Below are positions 1,441 through 50,271 of a stretch of 64,000 nucleotides of DNA, piece after piece. Each line of letters opens with the position of its first letter. Within the stretch, counting starts at the first letter, position 1. A program made the translations under genes and the position numbers. The stretch comes from Glaucostegus cemiculus. Taxonomy: Eukaryota. Below the pieces are notes generated by a model. That model made no database searches. It was not told where the DNA came from and saw nothing but the letters and a program-made list of their open reading frames with translations. Location of the stretch: positions 5,270,001 through 5,334,000 of the forward strand of contig CDPCPM010000011.1 of NCBI GenBank assembly GCA_976551045.1, read 5' to 3'.

Positions 1441-4279
1441 TTTCATGTCTGGTATATTTAAGTACCTAATGTACACAGGCCTACTATGTACACATCCCAC
1501 CATGTGAGGTACATTAGGAAAAAGATAATGGCAGTCCTGTGATGTTATTGATTAGAAAGAGGACAATATTGCAGTGAAACATTCATTTTGAGAATAGGCT
1601 ATAACTCATTCTCCATGTACTAACGTTCATGACCATCTCTCCAGCAGGCTTTACATAGGAGATTATATATTGTATTTAGTTTTTTGTAATTTTGTGCTTT
1701 CATCTGCACTGCAAGCCGTACCATCTTTCAACAGTGTGATACACAGTGCTGTTCATTACATCCTCTAATGGTATAGTTCCCTTTACCAGTGAAGGCTATA
1801 GGAGTTTAACAAGGTTATTTGTAACCATTCTAAAAATATTTTTCTTCCTGCTCACAAAAAAGTAAAGAACTTGATGGCCATTAATGAATATTGAGCACAA
1901 TGATGTGGTTTTATATCCTATTTAAGGTGATCTTATATTTTGTGCATTTGCAAAATCTCTTGCTTGTGTCTTCACCCTAAAATAAAAATTGCACTTTTAC
2001 CCTTTTACACTAGTCTAGCTTCCATCTCTGTTAATATTCAACTGAATTTTGACAGCCCCTTTTAATGCTTTCATTCTGTTTCCAAGTTGATCGACTTTTC
2101 TGACTTCAATCTGCTTATGGGCTGCCTGAGTGCTGAGCTGTCATGGCATAAATCAGGGATATGGCCTTGTGCCTGACGCAGACATTCATTAGCATTGTTG
2201 GTAAATTCAGTTCTATCAGTATTCATTGATTTTACTGCTGTCACAATTCAGATGCAGTGTTAGGAAACTCCTACACTGGAGTTATTCCCCAAGGGGTAAT
2301 CTGTCTGGCTAACAAACATTTGAAACTGCACATTTTCTTTCTGCTGGTGTATACAGACCAGATTTCAGAATAATCAGTCAATCGTCAGCCAGATTTGCTG
2401 CTACCTATAGCAAATTTGCAATAACAACTTGCAAACTATTTTCTTTTTGAGTCAAGGCATCTTCATTCGTGATATCAAATAGTGAATAAAGAGCAAAAGT
2501 GCATCAGAGGTGATGAAAAGTTAATGAAGTGATAGGGAAGGAGAAGTCAATCAAGCTGGTTTTCAGATTTTGCAAAGGCTGTGATTTATTCATTCCGTTA
2601 ACACTACAGCCTATATTCTGGGAGGGACTGGTGTGGATCCATTCAATACAAACTCCCAATGTAAATGTCACTGACGTTAGTATACTACAAATGACTGTGC
2701 AAGGCTTTTAGCTTTTTCCTTTGGTCTCAGCAGCATGGAATGTCATACCATATTATGCCCTGGACAACCAACAGGAAAAGCCTTAAATCTCTAAGAGAGT
2801 CTTGCCCATGTCCAGAGTGAATCAAACAGGAGACACCCTAATCTATGCCAAAATGTAACTAAATGAATGGTTCTGGATAGAACTCATGGGGATTACTATT
2901 CCCATTGGAAAGAAAAATGGAAGTTATGGCAGCTATCCATCTCCCAGCCTACTTGTAACATTGGGATCCAGTTTCCCATTCACACATTCCAGGCTTCACA
3001 TTCCCTTCAAACTGGGAATTGTAGTGCTTTGAAATTACAATTTGGTGGGATTCTGACTAAGAGGCATTCAGTCATAATCCTGCGGATGGCAGCTTTGCAT
3101 CATTGGCTCCAAGTTTTTACACCAAATGTCCAAACCTGCATCAAATGGAGCCTGAAGGAAAGAGCACGTTGATTTTATTTAGCAATATTAGAGTCACCAC
3201 TTTGAAGAATAAGAAGTTTATCTTCCATCCTCAAACAAATGCCCTAATGCTGTACTATTCCCGATATTTATTTAAACATTCTTTTGCTGAAGAATTCTTT
3301 CTGTTCATTGAAGGAAAGAATGCAATGTGGGAAATGCAGGAACATTTATGTTTTTGATTTTTGGTTTGAGTTGGCTGCTGCTCAGCCTCAGAACATTGCC
3401 CTCTACAGGACCGATGTTAATTTTCACTTCCACACAAGTCAGCTTTATGGTTGATCTGAGTGAAATTGCTGATTGGTGTTAAATTATGAACTGGGTTGAA
3501 ACTGCTTAAACTCATTTTTTATAGAATTCTTACTCTTCAAAAAAAAAGGGAAACTTAGCAGAAGCTTTTAATGTGCTGGCCCACTATATCACCCAATTAT
3601 CTCAGCAATAGACATCTGGTGTGTGCTGCTTTCATCTCGGACAACATAGGGCTTAACATAAAGCTATTAAACTTGTGGATTTTTGTAGGTATAAAAATAT
3701 TCTCGTAACTCTTCCAGAATATATTTAATTCTTTACAGTTTGCACCTTGTCACCCCGCTGGTCCTATTGCCTTGTTTTGGGTAACTTATAGTGTAGCTCC
3801 AAATAGGACATTAAAATCCAATTCAGTACAAATACAATCAATCTGTATTGGCCTAATGTAATGCTTTATGTAAAGTGCATGGTGGCAAAACTGTGAATGC
3901 TTTCAAGGCACTGTGCATGAGAAAGCCAGGAAGACAGCAGACAAGGTATGGGCGGTGAAAGCTCAAGGCCTACATATTTCGAGCAGGGTGATGCTTTTCT
4001 CTGCTGTTTTGACTGCGCTTGCTTCCTTTTATGGAGACCTTTGGGTTATCCCTTGAAAGAATCATGTAAATTAGGCTTTCACGATCTGGTATTTCCAGTT
4101 CTATTTTCAGATTATATATAACCTTTCTGGACAGATATTCATTTGGGCTTTACTCAAGTATTTGTAGAAAATCTTATCGGTTCCCTGCACAATGTGGAGG
4201 CACAGCTTCTTTATGTGAATAGTGGGAGCTGAGCAACTGAAAAGGCTGTGAGTGTCAGGTAACTGGTGTTGTTTAGGGC

Positions 4280-29995: not shown

Positions 29996-30769
29996 CACTT
30001 CGGGAGGACAAACTCCAGGACAGAGTATAAGGTAAATGGCAAGGCTCTTGGCAGTGTAGAGGAGCAGAGGGATCTGGGGGTTCATATCCACAGTTCACTC
30101 AAAGTTGCCTCGCAGGTGGATAGGGCTGTTAAGAAGGCTTATGGGATGTTGGCTTTTATAAATAAAGGGATTGAGTTCAAGAGCAGAGAGGTGATGATGC
30201 TGCTTTACAAAACTCTAGTTAGGCCGCACTTGGAATATTGTGTTCAGTTCTGGTCGCTGCATTATAGGAAGGATGTGGAGGCGTTGGAGAGGGTGCAGAG
30301 GCGATTTACCAGGATGATGCCTGGATTGGAGGGTATGGAATATAGAGGGAGGCTGAAGGTGCTAGGGCTCTACTCATTAGAGAGGAGGAGGATGAGAGGG
30401 GACTTGATAGAGGTGTTTAAGATATTGAGAGGAATAGATAGAGTTAATAGTCAGCGCCTCTTTCCCAGAGCACAGATGCTCAAGACGAGAGGGCATGCCT
30501 TTAAGATAATTGGTGGAAAGTATAGGGGAGATGTCAGAGGGAAGTTTTTCACCCAGAGAGTGGTTGGTGCATGGAATGCACTGCCTGGGGTGGTAGTGGA
30601 GGCAGATACGTTGGACAGGTTTAAGAGATTGTTAGATAAGCACATGGAAGAATGTGGAATAGTAGGTTATGAGGGTGGAAAGAGTTAGTTTGGGAGTTGT
30701 TTGTAGGATGGCACAGCTTGATGGGCCGAAGGGCCTGTTCTGTGCTGAATTGTTCTATGTTCTATGTTC
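29996..30769 (+). mobile_element. Young 5'-truncated CR1 LINE with uninterrupted ORF2 C-terminus (stop at 30686-30688)
   Basis: HFGR...RDLGV...LVRPHLEYCVQFWS...LERVQRRFTRM...RRRMRGDLIEVFK...FFTQRVVGAWNALP; 3' UTR gatgggccgaagggcctgttc; (ttctatg)n tail. Confidence 0.95.
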
Positions 30770-30814
30770 ACTAGCTGATCCAGTTCAATCCTAAAATCTG
30801 TTTTTTTAAATCCA

Positions 30815-32190
30815 TTTTCGCTTTGAGATGCAGACATCACTGTCAAGGTTAATGTTTTTTGCTCATCCTCACTGCCCTGAGAAGGTGCAGGTAATCAAAC
30901 TTGTTGAATTGCTTCAGTCCTTTTGGTGAAGGTTCTTCCACAATGCTGTTGGGTAGGGAGTTTCAGGATTCAGAACCAGCCACAATGAAGGAGCAACATA
31001 TAATTCCAAGTCAGGATGGTGTATAGCTTGGAGGAGAACCTGTAGCTGGTGGTATTCTCATATCTGTGATGACCACGTACTTCTTGGTGGTAGAGTCAAG
31101 AGGTTGGGAAATGCTATCAGAGTGCTTTAGCTCAGTAACAGCAAGGCATTTTGTACGTGACCTACACATCATCCACAGTGCGACACTAGTGAGAGAATGG
31201 ACACTTTAATGGTGAATGCATCGTCCTGGATGGTCTTGAGTTTCTTGATGGAGGTCTCGCTTCACATTCCTGACTTGCTTTGTAGATGGTGAAAAGGCTT
31301 TGGGGTGTTAGGAGGTGAATCATCCTTGAACTGCTCTTGTAACAAATGTGTATATATGGCTGGCCGAGCCAAGTTTTTGTTCAGTGGTGACACCTCCCCA
31401 GTTGTTGATGGCAGGGAATTTGGTGATGGTAGTGTCATTGAATGTCAAAGGCCAGTGGTTAAATTCTTTCTTCATGGAGATGCTCAGTGCCTGGCGTTTG
31501 TGTGACGGAAATGTTACTTGTCACTTATCAGCCCATGCCTGAATGTTATCGAGGTCTTGTTTCAGGCACATAAGTTAAGCTCACATGCTGAGGAGTGCTG
31601 AGTAGAACTGAATATTGTGCAATTATTAGAGATTAACCCCACTTCCGTTGTAATAATGGAAGGAAAATCACTGATGGAACAGCTGAAATGGTTAGGCCAA
31701 GGACATGACCCCTAAGAGCTCCTGCAGTGATGTTCTGGGGGTGGGATGTTTGATTTCCAAAAACAATATCCATTTTCCTCCGTGAAAGGCATGACTCCTG
31801 CCATTCAAGTGTTTCTCCCTTGATGCCCATCAACTTCATTTTTATCAGGGTGCTTTGATACCACAGTTGTCAAATGCTGCCTTGATATCAAGGACACCTC
31901 TGACATTCAGATCTTTGATGCATGTTTCAATAAATGCTGGAATGAGGTCTGGAGCAAATTGGTCCCGGAAACTCAATCTGGGCATTGGTGAGAAGGATAT
32001 TGATACTGTACTGTCAACAACAATTTCCATCCACTCTGTTGATGATTGAAAGTTATTAATGGGATTGAATTTGTCCTGGGCAATTCTCCATATTGTTGGG
32101 TAGATGCCAATATTGAAACTGTACTGGGACAGCTTGACTAGAACAGTGACTCATTCTGGTGTACAAATCTCCAGTATGGAGCCCGGTTGT
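30815..32190 (-). mobile_element. Degraded CR1-clade LINE, RT domain to 3' end
   Basis: Minus-strand ORFs show APDLI, LDIKAAFD, GIKGETLEWQES and ITAGALRGHVLG (degenerate GVPQGSVLGP). Confidence 0.85.
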
Positions 32191-32674
32191 TATCTCTTTC
32201 CATAGTTTTTGGATCTAGTTCTCTCAGCCTGTGACTCATTTTTGGACACTGGCCTCTTCAAAGAAGCTTGGCATAATGGCAATGACCAGAGTGACAGTGG
32301 CAAGGGGCAGTAAATTTGTCCGCACCATCTGCATTGTTTAATTGTCCTATTTCTGAGCACCACAACCTCAAATAATTCAGTAAGAACACTAACGAAGTGA
32401 TCACTTAAGAGAGTAATTTTTTGCACTATTTATACTTGCACAATTTTTTGTCTGCATTTATTGTATATCCTCTGTTCTATGTATGTCCTCTGCTGTTTGA
32501 GTCTGGGGGAATTGACATTTTGTTCCTCCATGTGCTTTTATAGCAAGTTGGTGAATGACTTGAACTTGAATACGCTAATAAGTTCATTAATCTTTTGAGA
32601 TTTTTGCATGCTATGTTTTCCAGAGGACCCTACATTTCAGGTGATTATGAATATTAACATCAACAGTTAATGTA

Positions 32675-33000
32675 CATAGAATGAAATCATAGAACTGTTG
32701 TAGCACAGAAGGAGACTGCTGGGGCCACTGGGTCCATGCCAGCTCCTAATAGAGTGTCTTTTCACCACTCCTTCCTCACAGTTCTGAAAATTACTTACTC
32801 TCTAGTGTCTATCCACTTCCCTTCTTCAAGCACTCATTGATTGCCTCCACAGCTCGTAAACACTGTGAATTCTCTGTAAAAATGCCTTCCTTACATCTCT
32901 TGCCCAAAAATGTTAAATCTCTATCCCCGGCTACTTGAATCATTTATGAATAGAATGAGTATCCCTCAACTTACTCTGTTCTAACCAGTCAGCTCTTAAT
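32675..33000 (-). mobile_element. Old CR1 3' fragment
   Basis: catagaatgaaatcatagaac...agcacagaaggag...gggtccatgccagctc is antisense of a CR1 3' UTR. Confidence 0.55.
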
Positions 33001-33887
33001 AGTGTGGAGGCTTGGAAAGGGGCTGTTTCACTGTTGAATTTCAGTGAGCTGTTGCTGAATAGTTTCAACGCAGGCAGATGTTTCAACACGCCTGCTTCTT
33101 CACCATCCTCTATTTCCCTAGCGTCACCTGCCTCACCTTGCTGAAGGCCCTTGTCCTTGTCAACGATGAGGGTTTCATTTTAGAGCAAAGTCACGCGGCA
33201 AAGCACAAATCACAATTATAAGACACCCTCTGGGCCACATTGCAGAAAGTCACTGGACCTTTTCAGGGAGCAGAGTCATTGCTTAAGGACTTGGTTTCCC
33301 TGCTTCCTGAGCACTTTGGGTGACCCTGGATTTGATTTTAGGACACTTTGACTGTGAAATACTTTAGGACTTAGAAATGAATTAGGATCCAAGAGCAGCA
33401 GGAGTAGTTTCTGTTTAGAACAACCAGCCTCTTGTTTGCTGTGCAGATGCAAAATGTGTATGTGTTGGCAGGGGCATGTGGGGGAGGGATGGTTGATGGA
33501 AGATTGATGCTGTATCAAAGTATCATGACAGCTGCTCAGATAATGGGCACAGCACAGTTCATCACACCCTAGTTTCACGTTAATAGGATGAAAGCATTTG
33601 AGATTCATGAAACAAATCTGGAAGTCAGAATATTCAAAGCATCTTGCTGGTTGGTACTGAGCAGACTCCCAGTAACCTGCAGTTGCCTGCACTAGCATCG
33701 AATCCTGCTGCTTCTAGTTGTCAAAGGGAAAGTGATGGAAACATTTGTCAGTGTGCTTACTGCAAACATGAACTGCAGAATCATGGCCCTTTCTCACATT
33801 TCCTTTTACACCCTGGAGGGAAAGACTGCAATACTCTTGTCTGAAACTGACAAAAGTATTGTTGTTTTGAGAGTAAACTTCAGGTCT

Positions 33888-34000
33888 CAGTCTCCAGTCC
33901 AGATGAAGCGTCTTGACCCAAAACATCGACTGTCTATTTCCCTCTACAGAGGCAGCCTGACCCACTGTGTTACCCCAGCAGGTCCCAGTTTGCTCAGTTG
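33888..34000 (+). mobile_element. Penelope-type terminal repeat with decayed minimal hammerhead ribozyme
   Basis: cagtc-CAGATGA-agcgtcttgaccc-AAAAC-atcgactg, then ggcagcctgacccactg...ccagcag. Confidence 0.6.
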
Positions 34001-37000
34001 TCTCCATAATGGCTCCTCTTGGTCTCTACTACTTGTATATTTCAATTATTAGCAGCAGACTTGGAGATTGCTTTATTGTCTCTTTCTTCAAGTCATTATC
34101 ATTCATTAGTAACAACACTGTTCATATCAGTCCTTGTGGTTTCCCTCTCTGTGCCAGCCTCAGTGGGGAAGTGCAATCTCCTTAGGCACTGTTCCTCATA
34201 TGAATACAGACCAGGAACTCTGGTGGGACGTGAGATTTCCTGGAACTAATCCTATTCTACTTTATCTGCCTACAGTGAAAGCACTTCTGGCTCCTTCGTT
34301 CTTTCACTGCTGCTTTTCCTTCTCCTTGTCCTCTAGCCAGAATGGAACTGGCGGAAAAGTCCCAGTGCAGAATAAAGTGAGTTGCCCGAGGCCACTGTAG
34401 TTTTCAGAAGGTAGAAGAAACAATGGAACCAACTAAAATGCCTGCAACCACATCAGGAAACAGGAACCAGCACAATGTTGCCCAAACCTTTTCAAATGAG
34501 AGCAGGTGACTACCTCTTAAACCAGCCTTGCAATGGCTAGGTTTTACTGCCCCTGGCTTATTTGCATATTCATTACCATCTGGATAAAAAGGTTTCTGTA
34601 AGGCCCTTAGTTTTTAACTGTATTAAAAAATCTGTGTAATTACAAATTGTCACTGTATTTTAACCATGCATTCACCTTTGGAATCTAAACTTGAATCTAT
34701 GGTCCTTGTTCAACACCCTGAAATGGTCTCTTGGTCCCACATATATTATTTTGAAGATCTGAAAAAGCTCTAGGCTCTTGGTTTCTTCCCCCTCAGTGTA
34801 ACTTTCTCCAATTATTCTTCACGCTCAACCCATTTATTATTTTCTTTATCCTTCATACTGACTTACAGGCCAGGATGCCTTACTATACAACTGCAAAATC
34901 ACATATGCCTCAAAATACAGGGGTTTTGCCCAAAACATTTATTATTCATTGAGGTTTATTTCTCAAGCTTTATATCCAAAGATTTAATGAGCCTTTCTCC
35001 CCACTACCACACATATGGTTAATGGACTCAAAGCACTGGGGATATACCACCAACACTGGTGCCACAAGATCCTCCAAATCCACTAACGGGATAAGGGACC
35101 AACAATGGCCAGCATCCCTGGAATTAAGGCTCTAATTACAATCAGCCAGTTGCAATGGAACAATACTATTCTGTTATGTTCGGTGATGGCAAGAGATTAC
35201 CAGGCGGGGAGTAGAAAGATTCAAAGATGAAAAAGTATAACATCTTTTACAACATAACAATTTTTGGTCCATGACTGGTCAAAAAGAGGTAAAAACATTT
35301 ACTAATCTCTTTCAATTTTAAGATGGCTGTACATGGATCATCTGATTTAGCCAGTTCAAGCACACTTGAAAATCTTCTTTTCCACTGTCTCTTTTCCTCT
35401 TGTAATTTCCTGTGGGCTGTGTGCCAGTGGTTTTGCTTAAGTCTATATGTATTAAATTTACATAGTTCTCCTTGTCACTTAAGTCTGTTTTACCATCAAT
35501 TTCATCATTTCATTAGAAGGGTATGCCAGAAACATTTAAAGTAAAATTCAATTCTTTTGTGAAGTGAACATTTTCATGCATTTATTACTGTTAACCATCA
35601 GATTTATTCTTTAATAGACTTTATCCTTTACAAAAAAAAGATTATTTATTGTCTTTAGCATGGATACTTATGTATTATGTAGGAAATTATAAAATATTTT
35701 ATAACTTAACACAAATCTGTTAGCTTGTAAGATCTTTGTAATCAATGCTATAAAGTTCCATGCAAAATAGCTAAAATGTCTGAAAGACAATTTTACATCC
35801 AGGTTTAATTTTGGATACAAATGATAGGAATTGACTTCCTAAATGTTAACATTTCAGTTTAATTGTGACTTGCTGTTGTGATACTTCTTTGCTTCAATAT
35901 ATCTGTTTACCACTATACAATTCCTCTGTGAATATACAGATAAATTAGTTTTACCACAAAAATAGTTTGGTAAAAATTGGAAAAAAAAATCTTTTTATTC
36001 CACTCACTGTGGAAAAGTGAGGTTTGGATTTTCATCACAGTTCGATCATTTCTTCAAGAACTTTGGGCACAGATCTCAAATGTGTTAATCAGCAGTGTCA
36101 CAGAAAGTTTACAACATTGAAGGACACAATTTAGTCATTGGGTCCCTTTTGGCTCAATGCAAGAGCATTCCATTAAGTCCTATTTCTCTGACCTTTCCCC
36201 AGACATATTCTTTCTCCTTAGTAACAGAGTATTGCTTGTTTGTTTATTTTTTAAAATTTTAAACATCCATATTTTGCAATTATAATGATAGTATAACTAT
36301 TAGTGTTTCACATTATTACCCACAAAACTGACAGCTTTTGTAATTTGTGCGCATATTGTTTACACTAATATCCTAAATTTGTTGTGAGTGATTCTGCCTT
36401 TCTCTGAATCTATTTTGCAGCCTTCTCCACAGAAATCCAGGGAAATTGGTTGAATTGACAACAAACCCAGGTATTTATGAACTAATCTCACAGTAACATC
36501 TGTGAGATCCAAGTTTGTTTTGAGTGGCATTTTTAGTCATATTTACAGCTTTGTAAACTCTTTGTTCCAAAACAACTGATTTTAAGGGTGTGGACTCTAA
36601 TATTCTATAATATTTCTAAACAGAATAAATAGCTTTGTAAAAAAATGTTTTCAGCTGCCACCTTGATTATTTGTGTAAGTTCCAAGCTTACTTTGTCCTC
36701 AGTTAAGAATCAAATATATTTACTAAAAAATGTCTCCTCTTCTTCTTGTTTTGCTGTCTATGAGAATTCTTAACTACGATTGGCTAGTCAGTCAGTTGAA
36801 TGACATTATGGAGGCTGGGTGCAAAGACACTAATGAACTGATACCTAATAGCAACAGGCATTGGAAAAGAGAAAGCCCATACCAGCAGGATAGCTCGATA
36901 TTTTTTGACAGATTTATATGAGACTAGCAGTGAGTAACATCATTCTGTACTAACTGCAAAATTCAACCCATTGAGCTAAATTGGACCACATAAAATATTT

Positions 37001-37004
37001 ATGA

Positions 37005-38020
37005 AGTTCAGAGAGATCTAGGTGTTCTAGTGCATGAATCACAAAAAGTTAGCAGCCAGGTGAAACAAGTAGATAAGAAGGCAATGAGCATATTGGCGTT
37101 TATTGCAAAAGGGTAGGAGTTTAATAGGGAGGTTTTGTTACAGTTGTACAGGGTGTTGGTGAGACCACACCTGGAAATAAGATAAGATCTGTATTAGTCA
37201 CATTTACATCGAAACACACAGTGAAATACATCTTTTGCATAGTGGTTTTGGGCGGCAACCCACAAGTGTCACAACGCTTCCGACGCCAACATAGCATTCC
37301 CATAACTTCCTGACCTGTACATCCTTGGAATGTGGGAGGAAACCGGAGCACCCGGAGGAAACCCACACAGACACGGGGAGAACGTACAAACTCCCTACAG
37401 ACAGTGGCTGGATTTGAACCCGGGTTGCTAATGCTGTAAAGCATTGTGCTAACCATTATGCTAACGTGCTGTCCGTACACAACTCAAATCTGTACACAAC
37501 TTTGATCCCTTCACCTAAAAAGGGAGATAGCAGCATTGGAGGCAGTCCAAAGAAGATTTACCAGGCTAATTCCTTGGAAGAGAGGGTTGTCCTATCAAAA
37601 AGGCTAAACAGCTTGGATCTATACTCCTTGGAGTTTAGAAGAATGAGGAGTGATGTAATTCAAATGTATAAGATCCTAAGGGGGCTTGACATGGTAGATG
37701 TTGAGATGTTCTCACTGGTGGGGGAATTATGAACAAGGGGCCATTGCTATAAAATAAGGCACCGGTCATTTAAAACTGAGGTTTCTTCTCTCAGAGGGTA
37801 GTGAAACTCAGCAATTCTCTGGCCGAGAGGGGAGGAGGTCAGATCAATAGATAAATTTATGGTGAAGATAGATGGATATTTGAAAGACCAACGAATTGAG
37901 GATTATGGGGAAATGCCACAGAAGAGGCGCTGAGGCCAGTGCAGATCAGCCATGGTCATATTGAATGGTAAGGCAGGCTTGAGGAACCTGATAGCCTATC
38001 CCTGCTTCTATTTTCTTAAG
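37005..38020 (+). mobile_element. CR1 LINE 3' part interrupted by a SINE
   Basis: agagatctaggtgttctagtgcat (RDLGV), ttggtgagaccacacctgga (LVRPHL), LDLYSLEFRRMRSDVIQMYKILRGLD. Confidence 0.85.
37176..37474 (-). mobile_element. Young V-domain SINE inserted in the CR1
   Basis: Reverse complement of the 27483-27780 family; splits the CR1 at the PHL|EY junction. Confidence 0.9.
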
Positions 38021-38059
38021 TTCCTGTATTTATTTTCAGATTCATGATGATATCCACAG

Positions 38060-38250
38060 GAACTCACTGCCTGCAGGGATAATGGAAACAGAAGCAATCT
38101 GTGCCTTTGAGAGAGAATTGGGTAGGAACCTGAGGCAGAATAATTTGGCAAGACTATTGGGAAAGAATGGGGGAATAGGACTGACAGACTTGGTTTATAA
38201 GGAGCCACCACAGATTCTGCTGTGTCTTGTTTGTCTGTTAATTAGATTTC
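38060..38250 (+). mobile_element. Short old CR1 3' fragment
   Basis: ggaactcactgcctgcagggataatggaaacagaagc; METEAICAFERELGRNL resembles the CR1 ORF2 end. Confidence 0.55.
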
Positions 38251-38330
38251 CAGATTCATATCTGTTGCTCTCAATATATTTATTCAGCCAGACTTCATGC
38301 CATGCAGTGCTGAGTGATACAATATACACT

Positions 38331-39595
38331 CATAAGAACATAAGAAATAGGAGCAGGAGTAGGCCATCTGGCCCTTTGAGCCTGCTTTGCTTTTCAATAA
38401 GATCATGATTGATCTGCCTGTGGACTCAGCTCCTTTTCCCCATAACCCCTACTATGCAAAAATCTATCTAACACTGTCTTAATTATATTTAATGAGGTAG
38501 CCTCTCCTGGTTGCCTGGACAGAGAATTCCACAGACTCAAAAGCAGTTTCTCCTCATCTCTGTCCTAAATCTATTCCCCTGAACCTTGAGGCTATGTCCC
38601 AGATTCTAGTCTCACCTACCAGTGGAAACAACCTTCCTGCCTCTATTTTGTCTATCACTATCATAATTTTATATGTTTCTATAAGGTCCCCTCTCATTCT
38701 TCTGAATTCCAGTGAGTATATTCCCAGGCAACTCAATCTTTCCTCATAGGATAAGCCCCTCATCTCCAGAATCAACCTGGCAAATCTCCTCTGCACCGCC
38801 TCCAAAGCTAGTATATCTTTCCTCAAGTAAAACCAGAACTGCATGCAGTACTCCAGGTGCGGCCTCACCAGTACCCTGCAGCAGAACCTCCCTGCTCTTC
38901 AGTTCAGTCCCTCTAGCGATGAACGCCACATTCCATTTGCCTTCCTGATAACTTGTTGCACCTGCAAACCAACCTTTTGTGATATGTTGTCGTCAGTTAA
39001 CTGGACTCTGACAACTGGCACTTATTGCTCAATCACACTTTATTTACTTGGCACAAGGAGAACAATCCCACCCCTATCACCAAACTATTCCAAAATTTCA
39101 AGCAAGAGTTGTCTTTTTAAACAGATATTGACCAATTAAAATCTTTGGGTACCTGAGAATCCCTCATATGTATATATAAAGTACCAATCATGTTCCATAG
39201 ATATGGATGTTAATGACCAATAGAAACTACATGTTAATGGCCAGTAGTACCTTTGAGTTAGTAAAGTAATTGTTCAATAGTTAGTGTGTGCCTTGCAGTC
39301 CTTTGTTTGCTTCCTTATCTTGTGTCTTGGTATGTCTGGTGACCTCGGCTCCCAGGCTGTACAAAGAGGAGCTATGTCCTCAAGGACCTTGCTCAGTATG
39401 GGTGACTGTGCACTGTCTGCAAACCATCTCTGCCTGCACACTACCTTAACCCTTGCCTTGCCACAGCATCCACAGATTCATGCACAAGCACTCCCAAGTC
39501 CCCCTGCACAACAGCATGCTGTAATCTTTCACCATTTAAATAACAATCTGATCTTCTAATTTTCCTTCCAAAGTGGATGACCTCACATTTACTCA
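38331..39595 (-). mobile_element. CR1 LINE 3' part split by a solo LTR
   Basis: MRPHLEYCMQFW...LEAVQRRFARL...RRMRGDLIETYKI; tail cataagaacataagaa; homology stops at 38983 and resumes at 39475. Confidence 0.9.
38985..39474 (-). mobile_element. Solo LTR (490 bp) nested in the CR1
   Basis: TGTTG...CCACA termini, TSD GATA/GATT (3 of 4), minus-strand AATAAA at 39039-39044, TATA-like and three CCAAT motifs; cleanly interrupts the CR1. Confidence 0.7.
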
Positions 39596-39709
39596 AACAT
39601 AGAACATTGTGCATCAGTGAGTGATAAAGTATAATCCTTACAAAATGGTATACTTATGCTTAACAATGAAGTTCCTCACCCAATCTTGCAATGACATATT
39701 GGTATTGGT

Positions 39710-39855
39710 CTTCTCAGTGGATTGCCACCTTGTCGTGGTGGAGAAGCTTGTGTGGTCCTGAGATCCTGAGAGTGATGCTGTCTGGAGCTCTGCTCCTGGT
39801 AGGGTCACCCCTGGCGGTAAGGTCGATGGTGAGGTCCCTGACAAAGAACAATCCA
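39710..39855 (+). ncRNA. Predicted HDV-like self-cleaving ribozyme
   Basis: P1 CUUCUC 39710-15 / GAGAAG 39741-46; P2 UGGAUUG 39718-24 / CAAUCCA 39849-55; P3 ACC/GGU around 7-nt L3 UUGUCGU (39730-36); P1.1 G39732-C39747; long P4; J4/2 candidate catalytic C39842. Confidence 0.65.
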
Positions 39856-40187
39856 ACCAAGACCTCAATGGTGGAACAGGCAGACAAAGTTACTTCGAAC
39901 TCAATGGCTGTGAAGGCGGATGAAGGCTGCAACAAATCCATCGGTTCCAATCGTCATGGTTTCCATGCCATTGGAATCAGTTGGTTGATTTGTGAAGTAT
40001 TGTGTGCTTTTTGTAGTGCAACATCAAGTACACATTAAACAAATACACGCACAGGCATCTTCGCTCTGTGGGCAAGAATTTTCAGAGCCAAGATTGGACT
40101 CATAAGCCACTTGAGAGCCCATAAATAGATCAATGGAATGAGCACCATCATCCTCAACCTCAAGGGATAGCCACGACGATGACAACA
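39710..40187 (+). mobile_element. Full-length non-autonomous bipartite RTE-derived retroelement (478 bp)
   Basis: 14-bp TSD atattggtattggt (39696-39709 and 40188-40201); 5' part like BovB/Expander 5' UTRs (ccttgtcgtggtgg...ggtagggtcaccc); 3' part RIFRAKIGLISHLRAHK* (40075-40128), RTE-type 3' UTR atcatcctcaacctcaagggatagcc and a short trinucleotide tail. Confidence 0.85.
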
Positions 40188-40312
40188 ATATTGGTATTGG
40201 TTTATTACTGTCACTTGTACTGAGGCACATTGAAAAACTTGCTTGCATACCGATCGACAGGGTCAATTCATTACACAGTGCAGTTACATAGAGTTAGTAC
40301 AAAGTGCATATA
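40188..40312 (-). mobile_element. 3' tip of a Rex/Babar-like LINE with (ACCAAT)n tail
   Basis: Minus strand reads tttttcaatgtgcctcagtacaagtgacagtaataaaccaataccaat. Confidence 0.6.
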
Positions 40313-40639
40313 TACAGATTCAATGATTCGAATGGCTTTCTTCTATGTTGTAACCATTCTATAATTAATTTTTCATGCCTGAAATGGGGCACATGTGAGT
40401 CAGATGGAAAAGTGAAATTTCAAATTCCATCCGAATCTGGCCACTTCTCGATTTAACAGGGATGTGTTGAGGGACAACAACTCTGGATGCATCTTGGCTA
40501 GTTATATATTATACTGCTGCAGCCTTCACTTTAACATTGCCAAAGGAACCCAACAGTAGAAGTTGCAAAAAGGCTGAATCCATAATACAAAAGCTTTCTA
40601 CACACTACTTTGGGGCCTTCATTTGCAGTCCACTAAACT

Positions 40640-41300
40640 ATCCAATAACATTTCTCTGGCCCACAAATCTTTGCCCCCTCCTCCCCCTCTCCCCCTCAGT
40701 CATCCTCAGACCCACCAACTGCCTGGAAATAACTTCCAACCATTGGATCCTCAGGCTTCGCCATGACCACCATTGGGTTCCCTGGGTTTCCTTCCTTCTT
40801 CCACACCACTCACTCACCCTACCCCTTTCAGAGAAAGCCATCAGATCCTATGAAAACTGCTTCTCCAACCACACCTCTCCACAGTTTGAAGTACCCAGCC
40901 ACCATTTCCCCCTGGCTAGCAATAGACTCCAAGCATCATTTGCTGCATCCACAATTGGGTGTCTGGTGATTACAATTGGCTATTAGACGTGATTCTGCTA
41001 TCCATGGCCAATAGCCTCTTGCTCGACACCTTGTCCATCCAAAACCTCATTGACCTGCAACCTGCAACACATCCCCCATACTTCGGATTTCTTCCATAGC
41101 CTCTTACCCATTCTCCATAGTACACCCCACCAATCTACCACAAACAGTCCTTCTCCTTCCTTGATCTCTCTGGATCCTACCATCAATGTCCCTCCCTCAT
41201 ACCCCATCTGCCAGACCCTGAACTCTCCCTCCATCTTCTCTGTCTCACCTCGGGGTCCCAGATGTCCCAGATTTACCTGCCATAAGCTCGCTTGCCTTTC
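40640..41300 (+). mobile_element. Degraded L2-like LINE internal fragment
   Basis: C/T-rich L2-type composition; DFF...P segment and ctctggatccta (LDP) typical of the pre-RT region. Confidence 0.4.
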
Positions 41301-42159
41301 AGTCTAACTGGATGTGGTTAGGAAACCAGTTCCAAAATTGGTAATCTGCTCATGCTGTTGCATTTGCATGATTTGCTGAAAGCTTGTCATTTTATTTCCT
41401 GCTAAATTCTGCTTTCCCCTAGATTTCCCAGAAATATTCTGGCCATTTCATGCCAAGAACTTATCTGTTAGATTTACTCAAAGTGGAATTTGCCATAAAT
41501 GTCACCATCATACATTCAGGACATTTCTAAACTCTGACAACTTAATCCCACCTTGCTTTGTATAATGATGATCATATAATGTGCTCACCGTAACACTGGC
41601 TTGGATGTGACACGCCCATTGACCTATAGCAGGCTTGAATTTCTTTGCAGTCCCTGTGTACACAGGTGCATGTATATGTATATGGCTGCTATAACTTTCT
41701 TAATGAAATTGGATGTTTCTTGTCAAAGGTTAATCAGGATAAGTTGGAAGGGGTGACATACTTTGTTTCATTTTATCACTGTTGTCTTTACAGAACTAAT
41801 AATTTGTTGGCTGGAGGATCCAAATGGACTAAATTCAGCAAGGTGTTTTGAATAGGTAAACATTTAAATCTGTGTTCTATTATCCCTAGGAATCACTGTG
41901 TTTTAGTGTGTGCAGTGTTCAGCCAGCTGGCTCAATGTTATTGAAAGCCTGGACCATTTGCTTGCTCCAGGAATCCATGGCACTGCACTGCTCCAAATCC
42001 AACTGTGGTTGATTAATTGACATTCTAGATTCTGCTTTTTTTGAACTGAAGCACGTAAGAAATTGTTCTTTCTAAATGACAAATGTGGCAAGCACATGTG
42101 CATTAACCTCTTCTCAGTGAGTGTAAGACTTGTTGCCAGGTTCTCAGTTCCATTATTTG

Positions 42160-42595
42160 CCGGCCAAGGCTCAGTTGCTAACACACTTGCTTTTGAGTTA
42201 GAAGGTTGCTGTCCAAGCCCCAAAGGCTTGACCACAACATCCAGGCTGAGACTCCAATTCAGTAAAGATGCTGTTTCATTGAAGGTGCTGTTTTTGGATA
42301 AAAATTCAAAGTGAAGCCCTTCTGGAACTGCAGGTGGATGTAGAAGATGCCATGGTACTATTTTGAAGAGAAGTGGCAGAGTGACTCTGTTGTCTAAACT
42401 AATATTTATCTTTTGCATAATCAGTTTCAGTGTTTTGGTCCTTTGGTCCTTATCACACAGCTCTTTATTGAATATTGCTGTGTGAAGGTTAGCCATGCAC
42501 TTCCTACATTACTATGGTAACTACAATTTCAAAAGTAGTTAATTGGTTTTAAAGCATTTTGGGATAAAGTTGGCTATATAAAATTACATGCTAGT
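42160..42595 (+). mobile_element. Near full-length Deu-domain SINE (SacSINE1-like)
   Basis: tRNA-like head ggctcagttgctaacacac...gagttagaaggttg; Deu core ggtggatgtagaagatgccatggtactattttgaagag; L2-like tail aaagcattttgggat...ctatataaa. Confidence 0.7.
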
Positions 42596-42639
42596 CTTTT
42601 GATTTACTATCTGCATACCAGTCTTTGGTAACATAATCT

Positions 42640-43330
42640 AAAGATAAAGGTGCAATATTTTGTATTTTTCTGCCACATCTCTCAAACTCTACCATTGTCA
42701 CTGATTTCACACACCCCGACACTGTCTCAGGGTGAAGCAGCTAGTTTGCTACTTTGGTGGCTAAATTAACCCTAAACTGAACTTCTGTCTCAACATCCCT
42801 ATCACATACTGCACTTGTTTCTGTCCCAGTTAACAACACCTGCCTCCACCATCCTTGCTGAAACCCTCATCTTGTCTTAGTGATTAGCTGACATGAATAT
42901 TCAAAAATTCTTCTAACCAACCTTGCACCTTCCATACTTAGTAAACTAATTTACTGAAAATTCTGCTGCCCATACGTTATTCTGTACCATTTACCTACAG
43001 CTACAATTTTTTCTCAGGTCCTTGGGATTCTAGCTGTCTAAATCCTTGTTTTTTTTATAACTTCCGGCCTCTCCCACCTTGCATTTCCTTTTGCAAATTT
43101 CATAATTTTGATTCTGGCATTTTGTTCATCCTCTTAATGCCAACCATGAATGGTGGGCAAATTCAGCTGTCTCTATATCTGCATCTCTTTGCCTCTCAAC
43201 TTCTTTCTTCTTCTTCACTATAATCCACCTCCCTTTCCAAGCTTTTGAAGACCTTCCCTGCTATTTCTCCTCTTAGCTCAGTGTTAATTTTTGTCTGATT
43301 TCTCTCTTCTATATATATTAGGATTTAGAT
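42640..43330 (+). mobile_element. Old L2 LINE 3' fragment(s)
   Basis: gctgaaaccctcatc...aaaattctgctgccc correspond to the L2 ETLIHA...QNSAA region. Confidence 0.55.
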
Positions 43331-43769
43331 TTAAAAAGCTACCTCTCCATTCACAATCACTAGATCAGATTGGAACATTATCCTTTTATTCCTGGCACTT
43401 AGGTCAAAATCTACCTGGAACAAAAGAAGATGAAGCTTTATGTACTTTGCTTGAGTATATGGAGAAGCAGTGTGCTGTTCTCCAAGTTGTTGTAAGCTCC
43501 GATGCTGGTGGTTTCCTCTTCCTGAGGAATGATATGTGACGATATATTAAAATCATATTGTTTATTATTGAGGATCCAGATTCAAACTGTGGTTTAATAG
43601 TGGATAATAAGTGTCTCAGCTGTTAATAATCATACATGGAATGAATTGAGCACCAATGGCCACAGTGAAACACTGTTCTCAGCATCTGTAGTTAGAGACC
43701 AAAAACTGGGATAAACACACACACGCAAAGACAATGTTCTTCATACAAAAACAAAATAATGGTTCACAT

Positions 43770-44450
43770 TGATGCTGGTTATTTTAAGTTCACTTGGACA
43801 GTTTCTGATTACAGGGTCTTGCAATTGGCCATCAATAACTCCCAAATTAATGAACAACCTTTAATTACCATTTACTGGCGGTTTGTCAAATTTCATTTCA
43901 TAAATCGCTTGTACTGCACTTTTCCAAATTAACTCAGCTGAGAGTCATTCTCTGACTGCTATCAAAGCCAGCAATTACGCATTTTACAGATTAATTTCTT
44001 GTCAAACACATGCCGATGAGTTTTATTCTCTCCTAGGACACTTCAATCTATTAACTGCAGCTTTAGGCACACACAATTAAGTCCAGTTCCTATGCTGAGG
44101 GTCTCCAAAGCATGTCGCTGTGCACCAAAGCCACTCAGTCATAGAGTCACCATTTCCCAGGAGTTTTTCTTATGAACAGAAAAATCAATTAGAAAGTAAC
44201 CTGGCTAAGCTGATTCTTCACTTATTAATGGCTCCACATTTTTAACTGTTTACTGACCATTATTTGTCCTGCAGTGTGCTGTGCTAATGTTATTCGTGTA
44301 TATTAGAGCACACTACACATGTTGCATTCACCGACTGGTTATTGACATTAAAATTAGAGCACAGTAATAATAAAATGACAGATTGGTACTTGTAGTTGGA
44401 GTCCTCAGCTAGGTTAATAACATGCCATTAACATCAGTTTGAACTGATGA
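43770..44450. promoter_or_regulatory. Candidate conserved non-coding element cluster
   Basis: Unique block dense in TAATTA/TAATGG, CATAAATC, TTGTCAAA (twice), E-box CAGCTG and retained CpGs. Confidence 0.4.
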
Positions 44451-45374
44451 AGACATGTCTCAATTAATAATTTCTTGCTCTCCCTGGATCAGTTAGATGG
44501 GCTGGATTATGCTGGAGCAGATCCGCCGCATGCGCTGTTCCTGTGGCCGCACTTACCTTCTGTGGCTCTGCGATTCCAGTCAAGCCCAACACCTCAGTGC
44601 CAATGGCAACCAGGCCTCAGGCTGCAGGTACCAAGGTCCCGAATTGCTCAGATGGCCTACTGATATCTCATCATTGTCAAAGACTTCTGAGTTGTTTTAA
44701 ATGTTGCTAATAATCTGATACATTAAAAAAAACTTCAAATATTAAATCACAATTAAAAAAAATATTTGTAAGATAATTTTTATTTCTACTAGAAATTAAC
44801 CATAAACAAAGATAAAATAAAATAAATTAACTTCATAACTGCACTTGTCTAATAATCAAGGTTGGTAACCCCATCATTTGAACTTAAGTCAGCAATAGAC
44901 AAGTGTATCTGACTCCAGAGTTGAGGATCTTTGTGTTCCACCCTTGGAGTTGATGGAGAGTCCAGGTTAACACTGACTTCTGTGTGCAGTGCTCTATAAG
45001 TTCAAGTTGCAATGCTAGCTTTGATGTGAGTGAACACATTCAGACAATCTGTCTTTAATTAGAATACCCTATAACTAGATATCTAAGGATAGATTAAACT
45101 AGGCCCCAATTCAAAAGAATCCCTGCCATCCAGCAGGCAAATTGTCATCAAGCTGATTGGGAAGGCAATCTCAGCCAAGTAAAGAATTCTCTCAGCCAGG
45201 GAAAAAGTGTAAATTTTTTAGCTAATATTGTAAATAGACAACAAATAATTGAATATTATATAAAATTAAGATGAATACAGAAATTTCATTAACATTTAAA
45301 CAATAAAAACATTAAAACACATTATATTTTGAAATATTTATACATGGAAATTGTAGTCCACATCTATAACTCAA

Positions 45375-45946
45375 TGTATCACTGTTTGGTTTGGAAGCTG
45401 CTCAGCTGCTGGGCGGAAGTCCCTCCAGAAGATAGTTAAGGCTGCGGAGTGGATCATAGGTGTCTTGCTCCCATCCCTCGCAGACATATACAAAGACCGT
45501 TGTGTGAGGAAGACCAAAAGCATAATGGCCAACCCCTCTCACCCCTCCCACCACAATTTTGCCATCAGGGAGGAGGCTTAAATGTATCAGGGCAAGAACG
45601 TCCAGGCTGAACAATAGCTTCTTTCCGCAAGCCATCAGAACTGCAAACTCTCTCATCCCTCCATCTTCCTTTGTTAACACTAGGAGATGCTAGGTGTACA
45701 GAAATGCACCAGCACTTTAAATGCCCGACACCAGCCCGTTCACTTTAAGATCTATTTATTTAAGAACTAATGGGTAATGTTTTGTACTGTGTATTCTGCC
45801 AAGTGTGTATGTGTCTCTCTGTTGGTTGTTATGTTATTCTTTTTTTTATGAGACGTGCACCTGTGGAGGACGGTATCTCGCTCCTATTTTTTACCATGTA
45901 TGTATATGGTTGTGACAATAAAACTGATTCTGATTCTGATTCTGAT
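45375..45946 (+). mobile_element. 5'-truncated Rex1/Babar LINE
   Basis: CITVWFGSCSAAGRKSLQKIVKAAEWIIG...HPSHHNF, frameshift, LPSGRRLKCIRARTSRLNNSFFPQAIR; tail gtgacaataaaa(ctgatt)n. Confidence 0.9.
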
Positions 45947-47354
45947 ACTCTTTCAGACTGTAATTTGTGGAGGAGCACTGAATCATTTACAGCAACTCCA
46001 TGGTTTCCATGTTAAGCTACATATGTACAGAAGTCATCACGTTGCTGTCAGTTTCACAACTTAATGGCAACAATGCTAATAGATTTTCAAAATCCAACCC
46101 TGGCCTATCTTGTCCTTGGATGGGTTTCACTAATAATTTTCATTCAACTAACTACTGAATTCCTACTCTCAATGTGAGGGCTGAAAATCAGCTGGCTTTT
46201 CATTACTGAGCCTTCTGCCACTACTCGCTACCTCTTCCCAGCAACTCTTCTTTCAAGTGGAAGTAAAAGATCCGAAACCAATGTTGGATGAGGAATGGGG
46301 GATCTCTCCAACATCAGCTCTCAAATGTCACCAGCAAAACAAATGACCAGGTCAGAAACTTCACTGCTGATATGGCTCCTCCATCTGCCTGCTCTTCAAA
46401 TGGAATTCATTGACCGTGAAGTGGTCTGTACATCTTCAAAACATGAAAGACACACTGCTTTACTAGATTTAATTTTAAAAGATATTGGCATTTGGATCTT
46501 TAAAATATGTTGAAACCATCAGTAAGTAGCAGGTTAAATAAATTGATGTATTTTGCATTTAAGAACAAGTTACTTTATGCCTCAAATCCAGTTCTTTATA
46601 TGGCAAGTATTGCATTAGAAGCATGCATCATGCAGTTATCCAGCTAAAACAAAATGGCAGTGAAATTTAAAAGATGAAGTCACAAAGATTAGCTTCGGAA
46701 ATTAACCATACTCCAGTGTTTGGGACACGTATTATTTTTGGCAGAACTGGTAAAAGGAACATATCTGGTCAACTAAGCCCCATCCTCTGAGTCAAAGCGC
46801 CAAGTCAGCTATTTATATTTTGGTCTGCTTGCAGTGATAATAGATTACACCTGCACAAATTGATGTTAACTGAATGACCTTTTCTGTTTTGTTTTCAGAA
46901 CAATGGGAATGTCTATTAAAATCACAATCTTTTCAACTATGTGCCTCGCATAAATAGCAATATCCTGATTGCTTGTGCACAATAGAATCTGCATATGAGC
47001 AACAGCTTGCAGCACACTCCATGAAGCATATAGAAGGCTGACCACTCAGCTGCTGTCAGATTGGTCAACACATGTTGGTCTGACTTGGCTGCTTTATTGA
47101 CTTTGGCATTCCTGGCTGATAGTTCAAAACAGGAACTATGTATATCAATATTGGGCAGTGAAGGTTTAATCACGGATTTAAAACTACTTAACCTTAATAA
47201 TATTATAACTAGCAAGACAATTGTTCCAACTATTGAGAAACAGATGGTCTGAATTTCTTGTGTATTAATAAACATGAGTATTTGAATTCTAAAACGCTGT
47301 AATATGATGTGGAAGTTCTAAACAAGCCACAGCTTTGAGTCTGGCATCAAGCTC

Positions 47355-47745
47355 GACCAAACTTGTATTTATATAGCAATTTACATGATCTCTGAATGTG
47401 CTAAAGTGGTTTACAGTGGATTAATTGCAAACAGAGGCATTGATTCTGTTACAATGTGGTGAGGATGCACAAGCAATACTGCATTAATGACCAGATAACT
47501 TATTTTTCATCATTGGTTGTGAGGCAATTATTGGCCAGGACTTCTGGGAGACCCCAGTTATTTCTAGTGCTATGGGATATTCTATGTTCACTTCAGAGGG
47601 GGTTCTTGTCTTTGGTTTAACATTTCCTCTAAAAGTTAGCACCTCTGGCAATGCAACATTCCCCAGTCCTACACTGGAGTTTTCACCCTGGATTTAAAAT
47701 CCAAAAGGATTCCAGAGCATCCTGGCTCAGAGATGAGTGGGTGAA
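47355..47745 (-). mobile_element. Deu-domain SINE (SacSINE1-like)
   Basis: aacttgtatttatatagc...gtgctatgggatattctatgttcac...gcacctctggcaatgcaacattccccagt. Confidence 0.65.
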
Positions 47746-48029
47746 GATTTGAAATGTTGATGGCAGAGTAAGGGAAAAATTGTGCAGGAGCTGTGGGGAG
47801 GTGTGATGATACTGTGGTTAGATTACTTAAGTGAACCTCAAAGTCACTGGTACAAATTATCAGACTATCTGCATCCCATTTACGGTCTCAGGACAAAACC
47901 AGGGGCAGAAGAGTTCCTTGCTCACTGAAGACAAAATAGATCCTAAGACAGAGTTCACCTTATCAAAATACTTGGGTATTTTATACTCATTATTGGTCAT
48001 AAACAGCCATCTTATTATTTTATTTGTTT

Positions 48030-48570
48030 TTAAATTTTCCACTACCTTTCACTATATTTCCTGCCATCATCGAGATCCTCGCTTTTTACTTCCTGTGTGA
48101 CATTGTCCCTTGTCAATTCCACAGCTCCCAAAATGCATACACTTGTTGCCATTAAAGCTGGCAATTCCAGTGCAGTATTGGCTAGCCTTCCTTGTCTTCC
48201 TGAGGACATCTTAATCTCTGCTGTCCTTGTCCTAGTTCACTCCAAATCTTGTTCATTGATGAACTTGTGCTTGCTGACCTACTGTACTTCAATGTTCCAG
48301 TTTTAATATCTCATAGCTACTCACTTCTCTTCTAACCCCATAGCTCTCCAATATATCTGTGTTCCTCCAGTTCTGGCTTCTTGATCAGCCTTCAGACTTA
48401 ATAGCTTCACCATCATTGGCTGTACATTATCTGCCAGGGATTTAAGCTTTGAAAATCCTTCCCTCAATCTCTTTGTCTAACCTCTCATTTGACTTTCATT
48501 ATACTCCTTACATCTTTGTCCAAGATTTAGGTCAACTGCCAAGGTATCTCCTTATGTGGTTTTGGGATCT
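48030..48570 (+). mobile_element. Old L2 LINE 3' fragment
   Basis: tctgctgtccttgtcctagttcactccaaatc...tgcttgctgacctac...tcctccagttctggcttc. Confidence 0.6.
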
Positions 48571-49560
48571 TTCTCTCTCTGTAAACAAGGAACCTTTGTG
48601 AACTTAGTTTATTCTATGACCATTAATAGGTTATCATAATGTCTATATCCCATTTATACATTTGATAAATTGTAGCACTGACTAAGTGTTCTGCTTAATT
48701 AGATTTAGCCCACCACAACTCCTCCCTGTGGCCTCCATTTGTTCTGCAATCACATTTTTTGGATAACATTCTTGTGGTGTAACTTTGGACATTTTGCTAG
48801 ATTAACAATGCTGTAGGAAAAGATTTCTTGTTAAGTTGCCACCCTATTACCTGGAATTGAGAATTTGCCACAGGTCTGATATGTGTAAATGTAAAAGCCA
48901 AATTATTTGATAAAGAAACACAGAAAATTAAAAGTAAATAGTAGCAGCAGGACACGAGCATGATTCTGTTTCCATACCTCATCCATCCTGCTACCCTGGT
49001 GGGTGGACATGATGGGCTCTCATCTGTTGTAGCCATGGGAATTTAATTCTAAGGATGATAGATGGATGAAGGTTGATGAGGCAGGATATAGGAACAAATG
49101 TGCTTTCCAAACTTTTATTTTAATTGCCTTGGAGGGAAGAATTTTAAGGATCTTTTCTGCCTTCCATGATAGATTAGATATGTAAAAAGCATTTGTATTC
49201 CAAGGTTCATATTAGAAAAGTTTCCTGTGCAATATGACAAATGTGTGGTCTGTTTTCAAAGAAGTAAGCCAAACTCAAGTGTACTTGATTAAAATGAATG
49301 CAATTTTGTCATGTTACATGTCTGTTCAAACCAGACCTAGTCCAGAGTTTTCAACTGATGCCAGGCAAACAAGCAGCTTAACACATAGAAGGCTAAATAT
49401 TTTATCAAAGCATTTTGCAAGTATCCAGCATTGCCATGGCCTTTCAATTCAATGCTGGTCACTGATGTGCAAGAAGAGGCTTTGTCTCTCAGTCAGAGAC
49501 TGTGCTTATCTAAATGATGTGAATATCTGCCTCTTACATTACAGCACAACTGGAGTTAGG

Positions 49561-49592
49561 CCCTACTGACATCTCATGAGGTGTCAGTAGGG
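49561..49592. repeat. 32-bp near-perfect palindrome
   Basis: ccctactgacatctca|tgaggtgtcagtaggg; 15 of 16 Watson-Crick pairs plus one T-G. Confidence 0.9.
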
Positions 49593-50271
49593 AACAACAT
49601 CACCTATCAGGCAAGCACTTTTCAACAGAACTGGATTTACACAAATGTATGGAGATGTCCCTGAGGCAATGAACATTCAAAATGAATGCAGATGAAATAC
49701 CAATGTTTGATACTTTTTTTGAAGTAAATCACAAAGCTAATTTCTGTCCATTATACTTGGGTTGATTCAGTGTGTATTTTGGTAATCATAGAGTCCCACT
49801 GTATCAGTTTAAGAGCTGCATTTTGTTTTAAATTATAGCTTTGGACTCTTGATGAAGCAGAGGTTCTGACGTGTCAACAAGGAAGGATTATATAAAGAAA
49901 TAATAGTATACTGAATCTAAAACTATGTCACTTAGAACCAAAATAAGACAACCTATACTACAAATGTCAAAGTTATTAGAAAAATAGAATAGAATACATT
50001 AAAGAGGATTTAAAATGAACCTTAAATATTCAGTATGACTGGACATATTTTAAAAATCTCCACTATTTAGGTATTGACATAGTTACTGCATCAGCAGCTT
50101 ACACAGTTCAGTGATCAGATCATTTTGGATACAGAAGATCATCATAGAATATGTTTATTAAATAGATGTCAATCAATTTTACTTTTCAAAAGAAAGTTTG
50201 CTTTAAAATCTGCTGTTGGTATAATAGGCTGCAAGATATGATGGAAGTCATCAGTGCAGGAAAGAAATTTT

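Follow-up and report, generated by a model that had tools for sequence, protein, structure and literature searches.

A bipartite non-autonomous RTE element headed by a predicted HDV-like ribozyme, and its full-length parent, in Glaucostegus cemiculus

RESULTS

An insert of 478 bases occupies positions 39710 to 40187 of the window (the whole stretch of 64,000 nucleotides of Glaucostegus cemiculus DNA that was analyzed) and is flanked by identical copies (100%) of the 14-bp target-site duplication (TSD) ATATTGGTATTGGT, the left one of which abuts the first base of helix P1 of a predicted HDV-like ribozyme (Table 1). It is composed of the first 364 nt and the last ~114 nt of a 3.86-kb RTE LINE that is present full length in the same genome, and its ORF remnant consists of the 17 codons RIFRAKIGLISHLRAHK followed by a stop. 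The sequence-only reading had described a perfect TSD ending just before P1, the last 17 codons of an RTE ORF and no tRNA-like head, and all three descriptions agree with our results. No tRNA gene was found at the insert, and searches with consensus motifs yielded neither an A-box-like match (at most one mismatch) inside the element nor a B-box-like match in the locus. With a head that is the LINE's own 5′ end, the element is not a SINE in the strict sense (Pol III transcription and a head from tRNA, 5S, or 7SL).

The left TSD copy duplicates the end of a neighboring high-copy repeat (about 40189 to 40311), and a high-copy repeat was also seen on the other side of the insert (39476 to 39592). 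Cutting of host pre-mRNA by sense copies had been raised as a possibility; as for a host gene, there was no credible Pfam match among the 63 ORFs scanned of 144, and no host exon joints in 30000 to 49900 among the matches listed (contigs of four runs presumed to be RNA). The hairpin at the end of the kept 5′ part had a folding z-score of -3.1 in the window copy and of -0.7 in the long copy L222.

Table 1. Features of the insert and its flanks (positions in the window)
Feature	Positions	Strand	Basis or remark
Left target-site duplication, 14 bp	39696..39709	+	sequence comparison
Predicted HDV-like ribozyme	39710..39855	+	descriptor match, cross-family covariation; predicted cut 5′ of C39710
Remainder of the kept RTE 5′ UTR	39856..40073	+	homology with Repbase RTE 5′ UTRs, by eye
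Hairpin on the conserved motif, end of the kept 5′ part	40048..40072	+	folding z-score
Helix H1, 5′ strand, outer half (predicted)	40067..40073	+	deletion joint next to it, 40073/40074
RTE ORF, last 17 codons and stop (end of a C2H2-like finger)	40075..40128	+	
Helix H1, 3′ strand (predicted)	40110..40123	+	40117-23 pairs with 40067-73; partner of 40110-16 deleted
RTE 3′ UTR, terminal hairpin and (GAC/GAT)n tail	40129..40187	+	
Right target-site duplication	40188..40201	+	

The autonomous RTE partner sharing both ends, which had been anticipated from the window alone, was reached with a pattern from the 3′ end: L051, a full-length element of 3.86 kb that has a 14-bp TSD of its own up to the same +1. 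Its identity to the insert is 90% over query positions 1 to 362 and 93% over 365 to 468, with about 3.4 kb absent from the insert. L051 contains a single broken ORF with a match to RVT_1 (E 3e-28) and weak endonuclease and terminal C2H2-like matches, and the parent's 5′ UTR shares motifs and their spacing, as judged by eye, with Repbase RTE families in the portion of the PMC5786205 supplement covered. On the combination of endonuclease, RT, and C2H2 matches in one ORF and of UTR motifs compared by eye, we assign the parent to the RTE clade. The sole named protein relative of L051:276-809 (minus strand) is an uncharacterized protein of Mobula hypostoma (79% identical), which fits a cartilaginous fish.

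The parent's inner 5′ region gave 49 candidates in the genome versus 1,207 for the short form, and the 30 long-form loci that we fetched correspond to 12 independent insertions, 7 of which begin at +1 (one after a small inner deletion). Fifteen of the 30 loci share an upstream flank (L223, L230, L231, L233 to L241, L244, L247, and L248, on contigs C530, C364, C201, and C293 of G000). We read loci with a common upstream flank as copies of a single RTE insertion that spread by segmental or tandem duplication; an inner deletion at parent positions 1655 to 1957 is common to several of them.

We then analyzed the head of the element. In the window copy, P1 (39710-16/39740-46, mismatch at 39716), P2 (39718-26/39846-55, mismatch at 39725), P3 (39727-29/39737-39) with its loop L3 (39730-36), a P1.1 reduced to the single pair G39732-C39747, and a branched P4 (about 39755 to 39840) form a nested double pseudoknot in the correct order, followed by a putative catalytic C39842 and then AAA. 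The helices P1, P2, and P3, the loop L3, P1.1, and C39842 can all be read in the sequence as they had been listed. The family P1 has 7 bp and the family P2 has 8 bp plus a C-G pair after a bulged A, and the two mismatches are private changes of the window copy (C>A at 39716 and T>C at 39725). A 6-bp P1 and mismatches at the top of P2 had been noted from the window; they hold for this copy and not for the family, and the suspicion that the copy is impaired probably stands, its ribozyme being predicted to be slow or dead with one mismatch in each helix. Since J1/2 is one nucleotide long when P2 is fully formed, fraying would be needed for activity; a J1/2 of one nucleotide gave little activity in drz-Agam-2-1 (PMC4908430, part covered).

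A descriptor combining P1, P2, P3, a 7-nt L3, a single-pair P1.1, and C-N-A-A matched the insert site alone on both strands of the 64-kb window, and in 40 Markov resamples it had a chance rate of 0.075 matches per 64-kb strand with one P1 mismatch and 0 with none. The comparison with Rfam, proposed earlier as a check against HDV-like models, gave no HDV-clan match for the insert, which we attribute to a limit of the library rather than to a defining property. In a model without pseudoknots, the fold of the 146-nt head was about as stable as those of shuffled sequences (z 0.04). Cofolding, also pseudoknot free, paired family positions 8 to 32 with the last ~25 nt (p about 0.75 for 8 to 21); this pairing of the extreme 5′ and 3′ ends competes with P2/P3 and is absent, by eye, from two other families.

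Covariation was evaluated across RTE families. A metagenome scan with a pattern for L3 and a P4 hairpin returned 84 loci, which together with L051 formed 35 clusters, 15 of them RTE-like by criteria blind to P1 and P2 and 20 unrelated; L152, with a P1 of 4/7, is an RTE-like cluster that was placed among the non-RTE ones. With the P1 register taken as the best fit within 8 to 13 nt, the own P1 pairing averaged 6.1/7 in the 15 RTE-like clusters versus 4.7 in the 20 unrelated ones and 5.3 in crossed combinations, and the own P2 duplex averaged -9.9 versus -6.0 kcal/mol when crossed (14 clusters). None of 20,000 permutations matched either the P1 or the P2 signal, counts that overstate independence, as the clusters have common ancestry and two of the 15 represent a single family. 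The covariation of P1 and P2 that had been expected thus holds across RTE families and not among the copies of this family, which show neutral decay. Several of the metagenome clusters run on into RTE-like ORFs. On metagenome contigs (L205/L209, L198, L164, and L171) we also saw RTE elements that have the same ribozyme type and frames of 1,058 to 1,097 uninterrupted codons, together with bipartite derivatives of the L205 family.

RNAalifold was applied to 13 representatives, with the best member taken for two clusters, duplicates of two families dropped, and L171, which is missing J4/2-P2, left out. It recovered P2, P3, and the branched P4, and 20 of 33 pairs show changes on both sides. In P1, 85 of 91 cells are paired and each of the seven positions shows double changes; the first pair is C-G in 9 of the 13 families. 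A C at +1 had been taken for a defect; it is normal here, because P1 and P2 covary across RTE families mostly with C+1. The J4/2 motif C-N-A-A was located in 14 of 15 clusters and is an invariant column in the 13 rows, a C directly follows P1 in 12 of 15 clusters, and P3 has one double change; the search pattern itself prescribes L3, most of P3, and one P4 hairpin, which makes them conserved by design.

The element had been proposed to belong to a multicopy family with a common 5′ end at P1 and an internal deletion not unique to the locus, and the genome supports each point. A genome search gave 1,207 candidates; the 40 scored were all near full length, with 89 to 92% identity to the window copy, and 30 fetched copies differed from their majority by 6.4% on average, mostly through CpG decay. 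Because top matches are biased toward full length, other samples were drawn. A sample anchored on the distal end of the 5′ part contained only bipartite loci (18/18), and in this sample, not picked by 5′ end, 12/18 copies started at +1 to +5 and 6/18 were truncated at scattered positions (78 to 237). For the ribozyme core, the first 30 of 102 exact matches were taken: all 30 start within a few bases of +1 in unrelated flanks, 29 join a 3′ end, one has no visible 3′ end, and none runs on into the ORF. Of 40 copies whose start is intact, 24 have a TSD of 8 nt or more directly before +1, versus 2.4 expected at control positions, and the base at -1 in 40 copies is T in 15, A in 12, C in 8, and G in 5. 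Among 22 scored copies, selected in part for having the core intact, 11 retain it. The family is multicopy with TSDs, a repeat tail, and recurring joints, all features of bipartite RTEs.

Some further observations concern its variants. Two copies (L081 and L083) are split by later insertions of 320 to 470 nt. Family-wide variants at window positions 39827, 40010, and 40014 were seen in organisms K and L (and A, C, and E) and are absent from I, J, and B, a pattern that we read as lineage-specific masters; in contigs of K and L the 5′ edge is likewise at 39710, with different joints near 40070. In a search for other ribozyme-headed RTE families in the genome, one pattern picked up the 3′ end of an unrelated repeat instead (30 of 213 matches viewed) and a second one only variants of this family (6).

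We next compared the deletion joints. The 30 core-anchored copies contain at least 23 junction types (counted by hand). In parent coordinates, their 5′ breaks fall at 357 to 376 in 21 copies, at 441 to 454 in 7, and at 385 and 299 in one each, and their 3′ breaks are spread over about 3704 to 3842. The joint of the window copy recurs in L026. Among 82 pooled copies, a set enriched for copies like the window's, the commonest joint was found in about 20 and carries a T where long copies have a C, and another joint was found in 9, 8 of which have a C in common at position 304. Several joints were found repeatedly and with private variants, so part of the derivatives were amplified; the same pattern suggests mobilization of short copies in trans. 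The single SINE-like family with one deletion that had been proposed gives way to what we read as a swarm of independent or nested deletions, several of them amplified. One copy (L040:1440-1500) has three parts, the 5′ UTR, a 53-nt piece resembling the RT region, and the 3′ end, which suggests two jumps.

The main cluster of 5′ breaks coincides with a predicted pairing of the parent's ends: 21 of the 30 breaks lie within 20 nt for which pairing with the parent's 3′ end is predicted. This helix, H1, joins parent positions 357 to 375 with 3792 to 3805 through 15 bp with a 4-nt bulge (-21.1 kcal/mol). A helix as good was obtained in 7/500 shuffles of the majority, in 6/300 for four real long copies, and in 1/300 for a fifth, and H1 was the best pairing of about 20 tiles of the 5′ UTR in four of these five long copies and third in the fifth; the five tests count as one observation because the strand is common to the copies. 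With a stricter rule of one bulge, which excludes the full helix, H1 was nonsignificant (39% of shuffles as good), its pair probability in cofolding was only about 0.4, and the neighboring tile 375 to 400 pairs about as strongly and holds only one break. In the unrelated L205/L209 family, the joint of the derivative L164 also lies inside a bulged 5′-3′ helix (26/500 shuffles, fourth-ranked region). A second helix, H2 (parent 441 to 452 with 3762 to 3772), was considered for the second break cluster (7/30 copies). Initial tests on a majority built from short copies gave 2/300 and 37/500 shuffles; H2 was rejected because the long copies differ by a base at this place, and for them 29 to 131 of 300 shuffles are as good. 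The copies of the second cluster share variants and are probably one lineage.

DISCUSSION

On every feature that could be tested here, the element corresponds to a bipartite non-autonomous RTE. The comparisons that follow refer to the covered parts of the sources cited. Kojima 2018 described bipartite ORF-less derivatives for RTE, Ingi, Vingi, and R2, which usually keep the LINE 5′ end, a trait linked to self-cleaving ribozymes, and left the cause of the RTE bias open (PMC5786205); Kojima 2020 called such derivatives common for RTE (PMC7245038). Described bipartite RTEs include RTESINE1/2, MAR4_MD, WALLSI3, the coelacanth RTE-N1_Lch and RTE-N2_Lch, and Bov-A (PMC5786205). Like them, the insert joins the 5′ and 3′ ends of an RTE LINE without an RNA-gene head, and a motif in its 5′ UTR is, as judged by eye, common to RTE-1_AC_1, RTE-3_Crp, RTE-15_CPB, and RTE-2_LCh (PMC5786205); unlike in the parts of that work covered, we describe a swarm of joints and a predicted 5′-3′ pairing.

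Autonomous RTEs also have HDV-like ribozymes at the 5′ end, for which release from a cotranscript was proposed (Ruminski 2011 and Webb 2009, via PMC6765202 and PMC5786205), and the insert carries its predicted ribozyme in the same place. Two kinds of non-autonomous elements have ribozymes that were assayed (PMC3185411 and PMC3414825). NARTc, with L1Tc, of Trypanosoma cruzi (Sanchez-Luque 2011, PMC3185411) has an HDV-like ribozyme head with a single-pair P1.1, a cut at +1 (predicted here), and an upstream G that can extend P1; it belongs to the Ingi clade and has a compact 77-nt ribozyme of shown activity, whereas the insert belongs to the RTE clade and has a 146-nt ribozyme with a branched P4 that is predicted only. 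The Drosophila R2 SIDEs (Eickbush and Eickbush 2012, PMC3414825) likewise combine a ribozyme with a 3′ end and are Pol III independent, with a template jump offered as one origin; they are site specific in rDNA and rare, with four origins, in contrast to the dispersed, abundant family with many joints studied here. Among the paper listings and passages covered, we found neither this family named nor a description of it in this lineage.

We consider it highly probable that the insert is a decayed, internally deleted RTE copy (the first 364 and last ~114 bases), likely placed by the parent's protein in trans, the 5′ end of its RNA likely coming from the predicted ribozyme. As such a copy would, the element agrees with a full-length RTE at both ends and has a TSD and a tail. 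A host or internal transcript would be cut 5′ of C+1 by the double pseudoknot, which would give full-length copies one 5′ end, and the RTE protein would bind the 3′ end and insert the RNA by target-primed reverse transcription; ribozyme release and insertion in trans are drawn from the established biology of RTE, R2, and L1Tc (PMC6765202, PMC3185411, and PMC3414825, parts covered). The deletions originated repeatedly or were re-trimmed, some junction types being amplified as subfamilies, and the window copy itself would have ended up slow or dead through its P1 and P2 mismatches. Against the promoter independence proposed earlier, an internal Pol II promoter starting at +1, with a ribozyme fold that is inactive or secondary here, could also produce a uniform 5′ end: Pr77 of L1Tc/NARTc is promoter and ribozyme within the same 77 nt (PMC3185411), and Kojima expects bipartite LINEs to be Pol II transcripts (PMC5786205). 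We find this unlikely, as P1 and P2 covary across families, +1 coincides with the first P1 base, and ribozyme-bearing RTEs are without promoters of their own in the part of a review covered (PMC6765202); the two roles can coexist. It is more improbable still that the short copies are all dead on arrival, each made anew from full-length RNA and never itself mobilized; at least 23 junction types in 30 copies would suit a fresh origin at each insertion, but the same joints with private variants occur at unrelated sites (about 20 and 9 of the 82 pooled copies), and the window's own joint recurs in L026. That ordinary UTR sequence was read as a pseudoknot by chance, as the missing Rfam match and the unremarkable folding z-score might suggest, is very improbable and largely refuted by the low descriptor rate, the exact position at the 5′ end, and the cross-family covariation.

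For the position of the 5′ breaks, two explanations are about in balance. An RTE RNA clamped end to end by the bulged helix, from the 5′ UTR to the last ORF codons, would bring its two ends together and favor template jumps there; RT jumping across the clamp would repeatedly make ribozyme-headed minis, born releasable and re-mobilizable. We hold this only tentatively, with some doubt. It is close to an even question whether, instead, the conserved motif and its hairpin (40048 to 40072) must be kept for mobilization while shorter elements are favored, H1 being incidental. In keeping with this, the alignment of several RTE families with the RTE-derived portion of IdioSINE2 breaks off at the same motif (PMC5786205 supplement, part covered), only 1 of 30 ribozyme-anchored copies breaks well upstream of the motif's end (at 299), the subfamily with joint 370/3811 (9 of 82 copies) is without the 3′ strand of H1 and was amplified nonetheless, and Eickbush 2012 argues for successive trimming to a minimum (PMC3414825, part covered). 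However, such a cis-element gives a lower bound only, with just 1 of 30 breaks in 377 to 440, and the rank of H1 among the UTR tiles (first in 4/5 long copies) and the placement of the L164 joint inside a bulged helix (26/500, fourth-ranked region) speak for pairing. Because the breaks cluster where the motif and hairpin end, and the RTE part of IdioSINE2 has the same boundary, we take the cis-element to be about as likely as H1. Among the paper listings and passages covered, nothing was found on 5′-3′ pairing at RTE deletion joints.

The insert is a further case of a kind already described (bipartite non-autonomous RTEs, NARTc, and R2 SIDEs), and its start exactly at a predicted self-cutting site is a known arrangement; the new detail is the many joints, with 5′ breaks clustered where the parent's ends are predicted to pair. 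The ribozyme type, with C+1, a single-pair P1.1, and a branched P4, covaries and is missed by Rfam. RTE-1 UTRs serve in gene-writing platforms (PMC13708176, part covered), so cis-features of RTE ends are of practical interest, and an end clamp, if true, would bear on full-length insertion by RTE-based gene writers. The family offers roughly a thousand short copies and dozens of joints, and its parent can be recovered; this makes testable the question left by Kojima 2018 of why bipartite derivatives come from RTE, Ingi/Vingi, and R2, and the clamp, if true, would explain why RTEs so often spawn bipartite derivatives and RTE-bodied SINEs.
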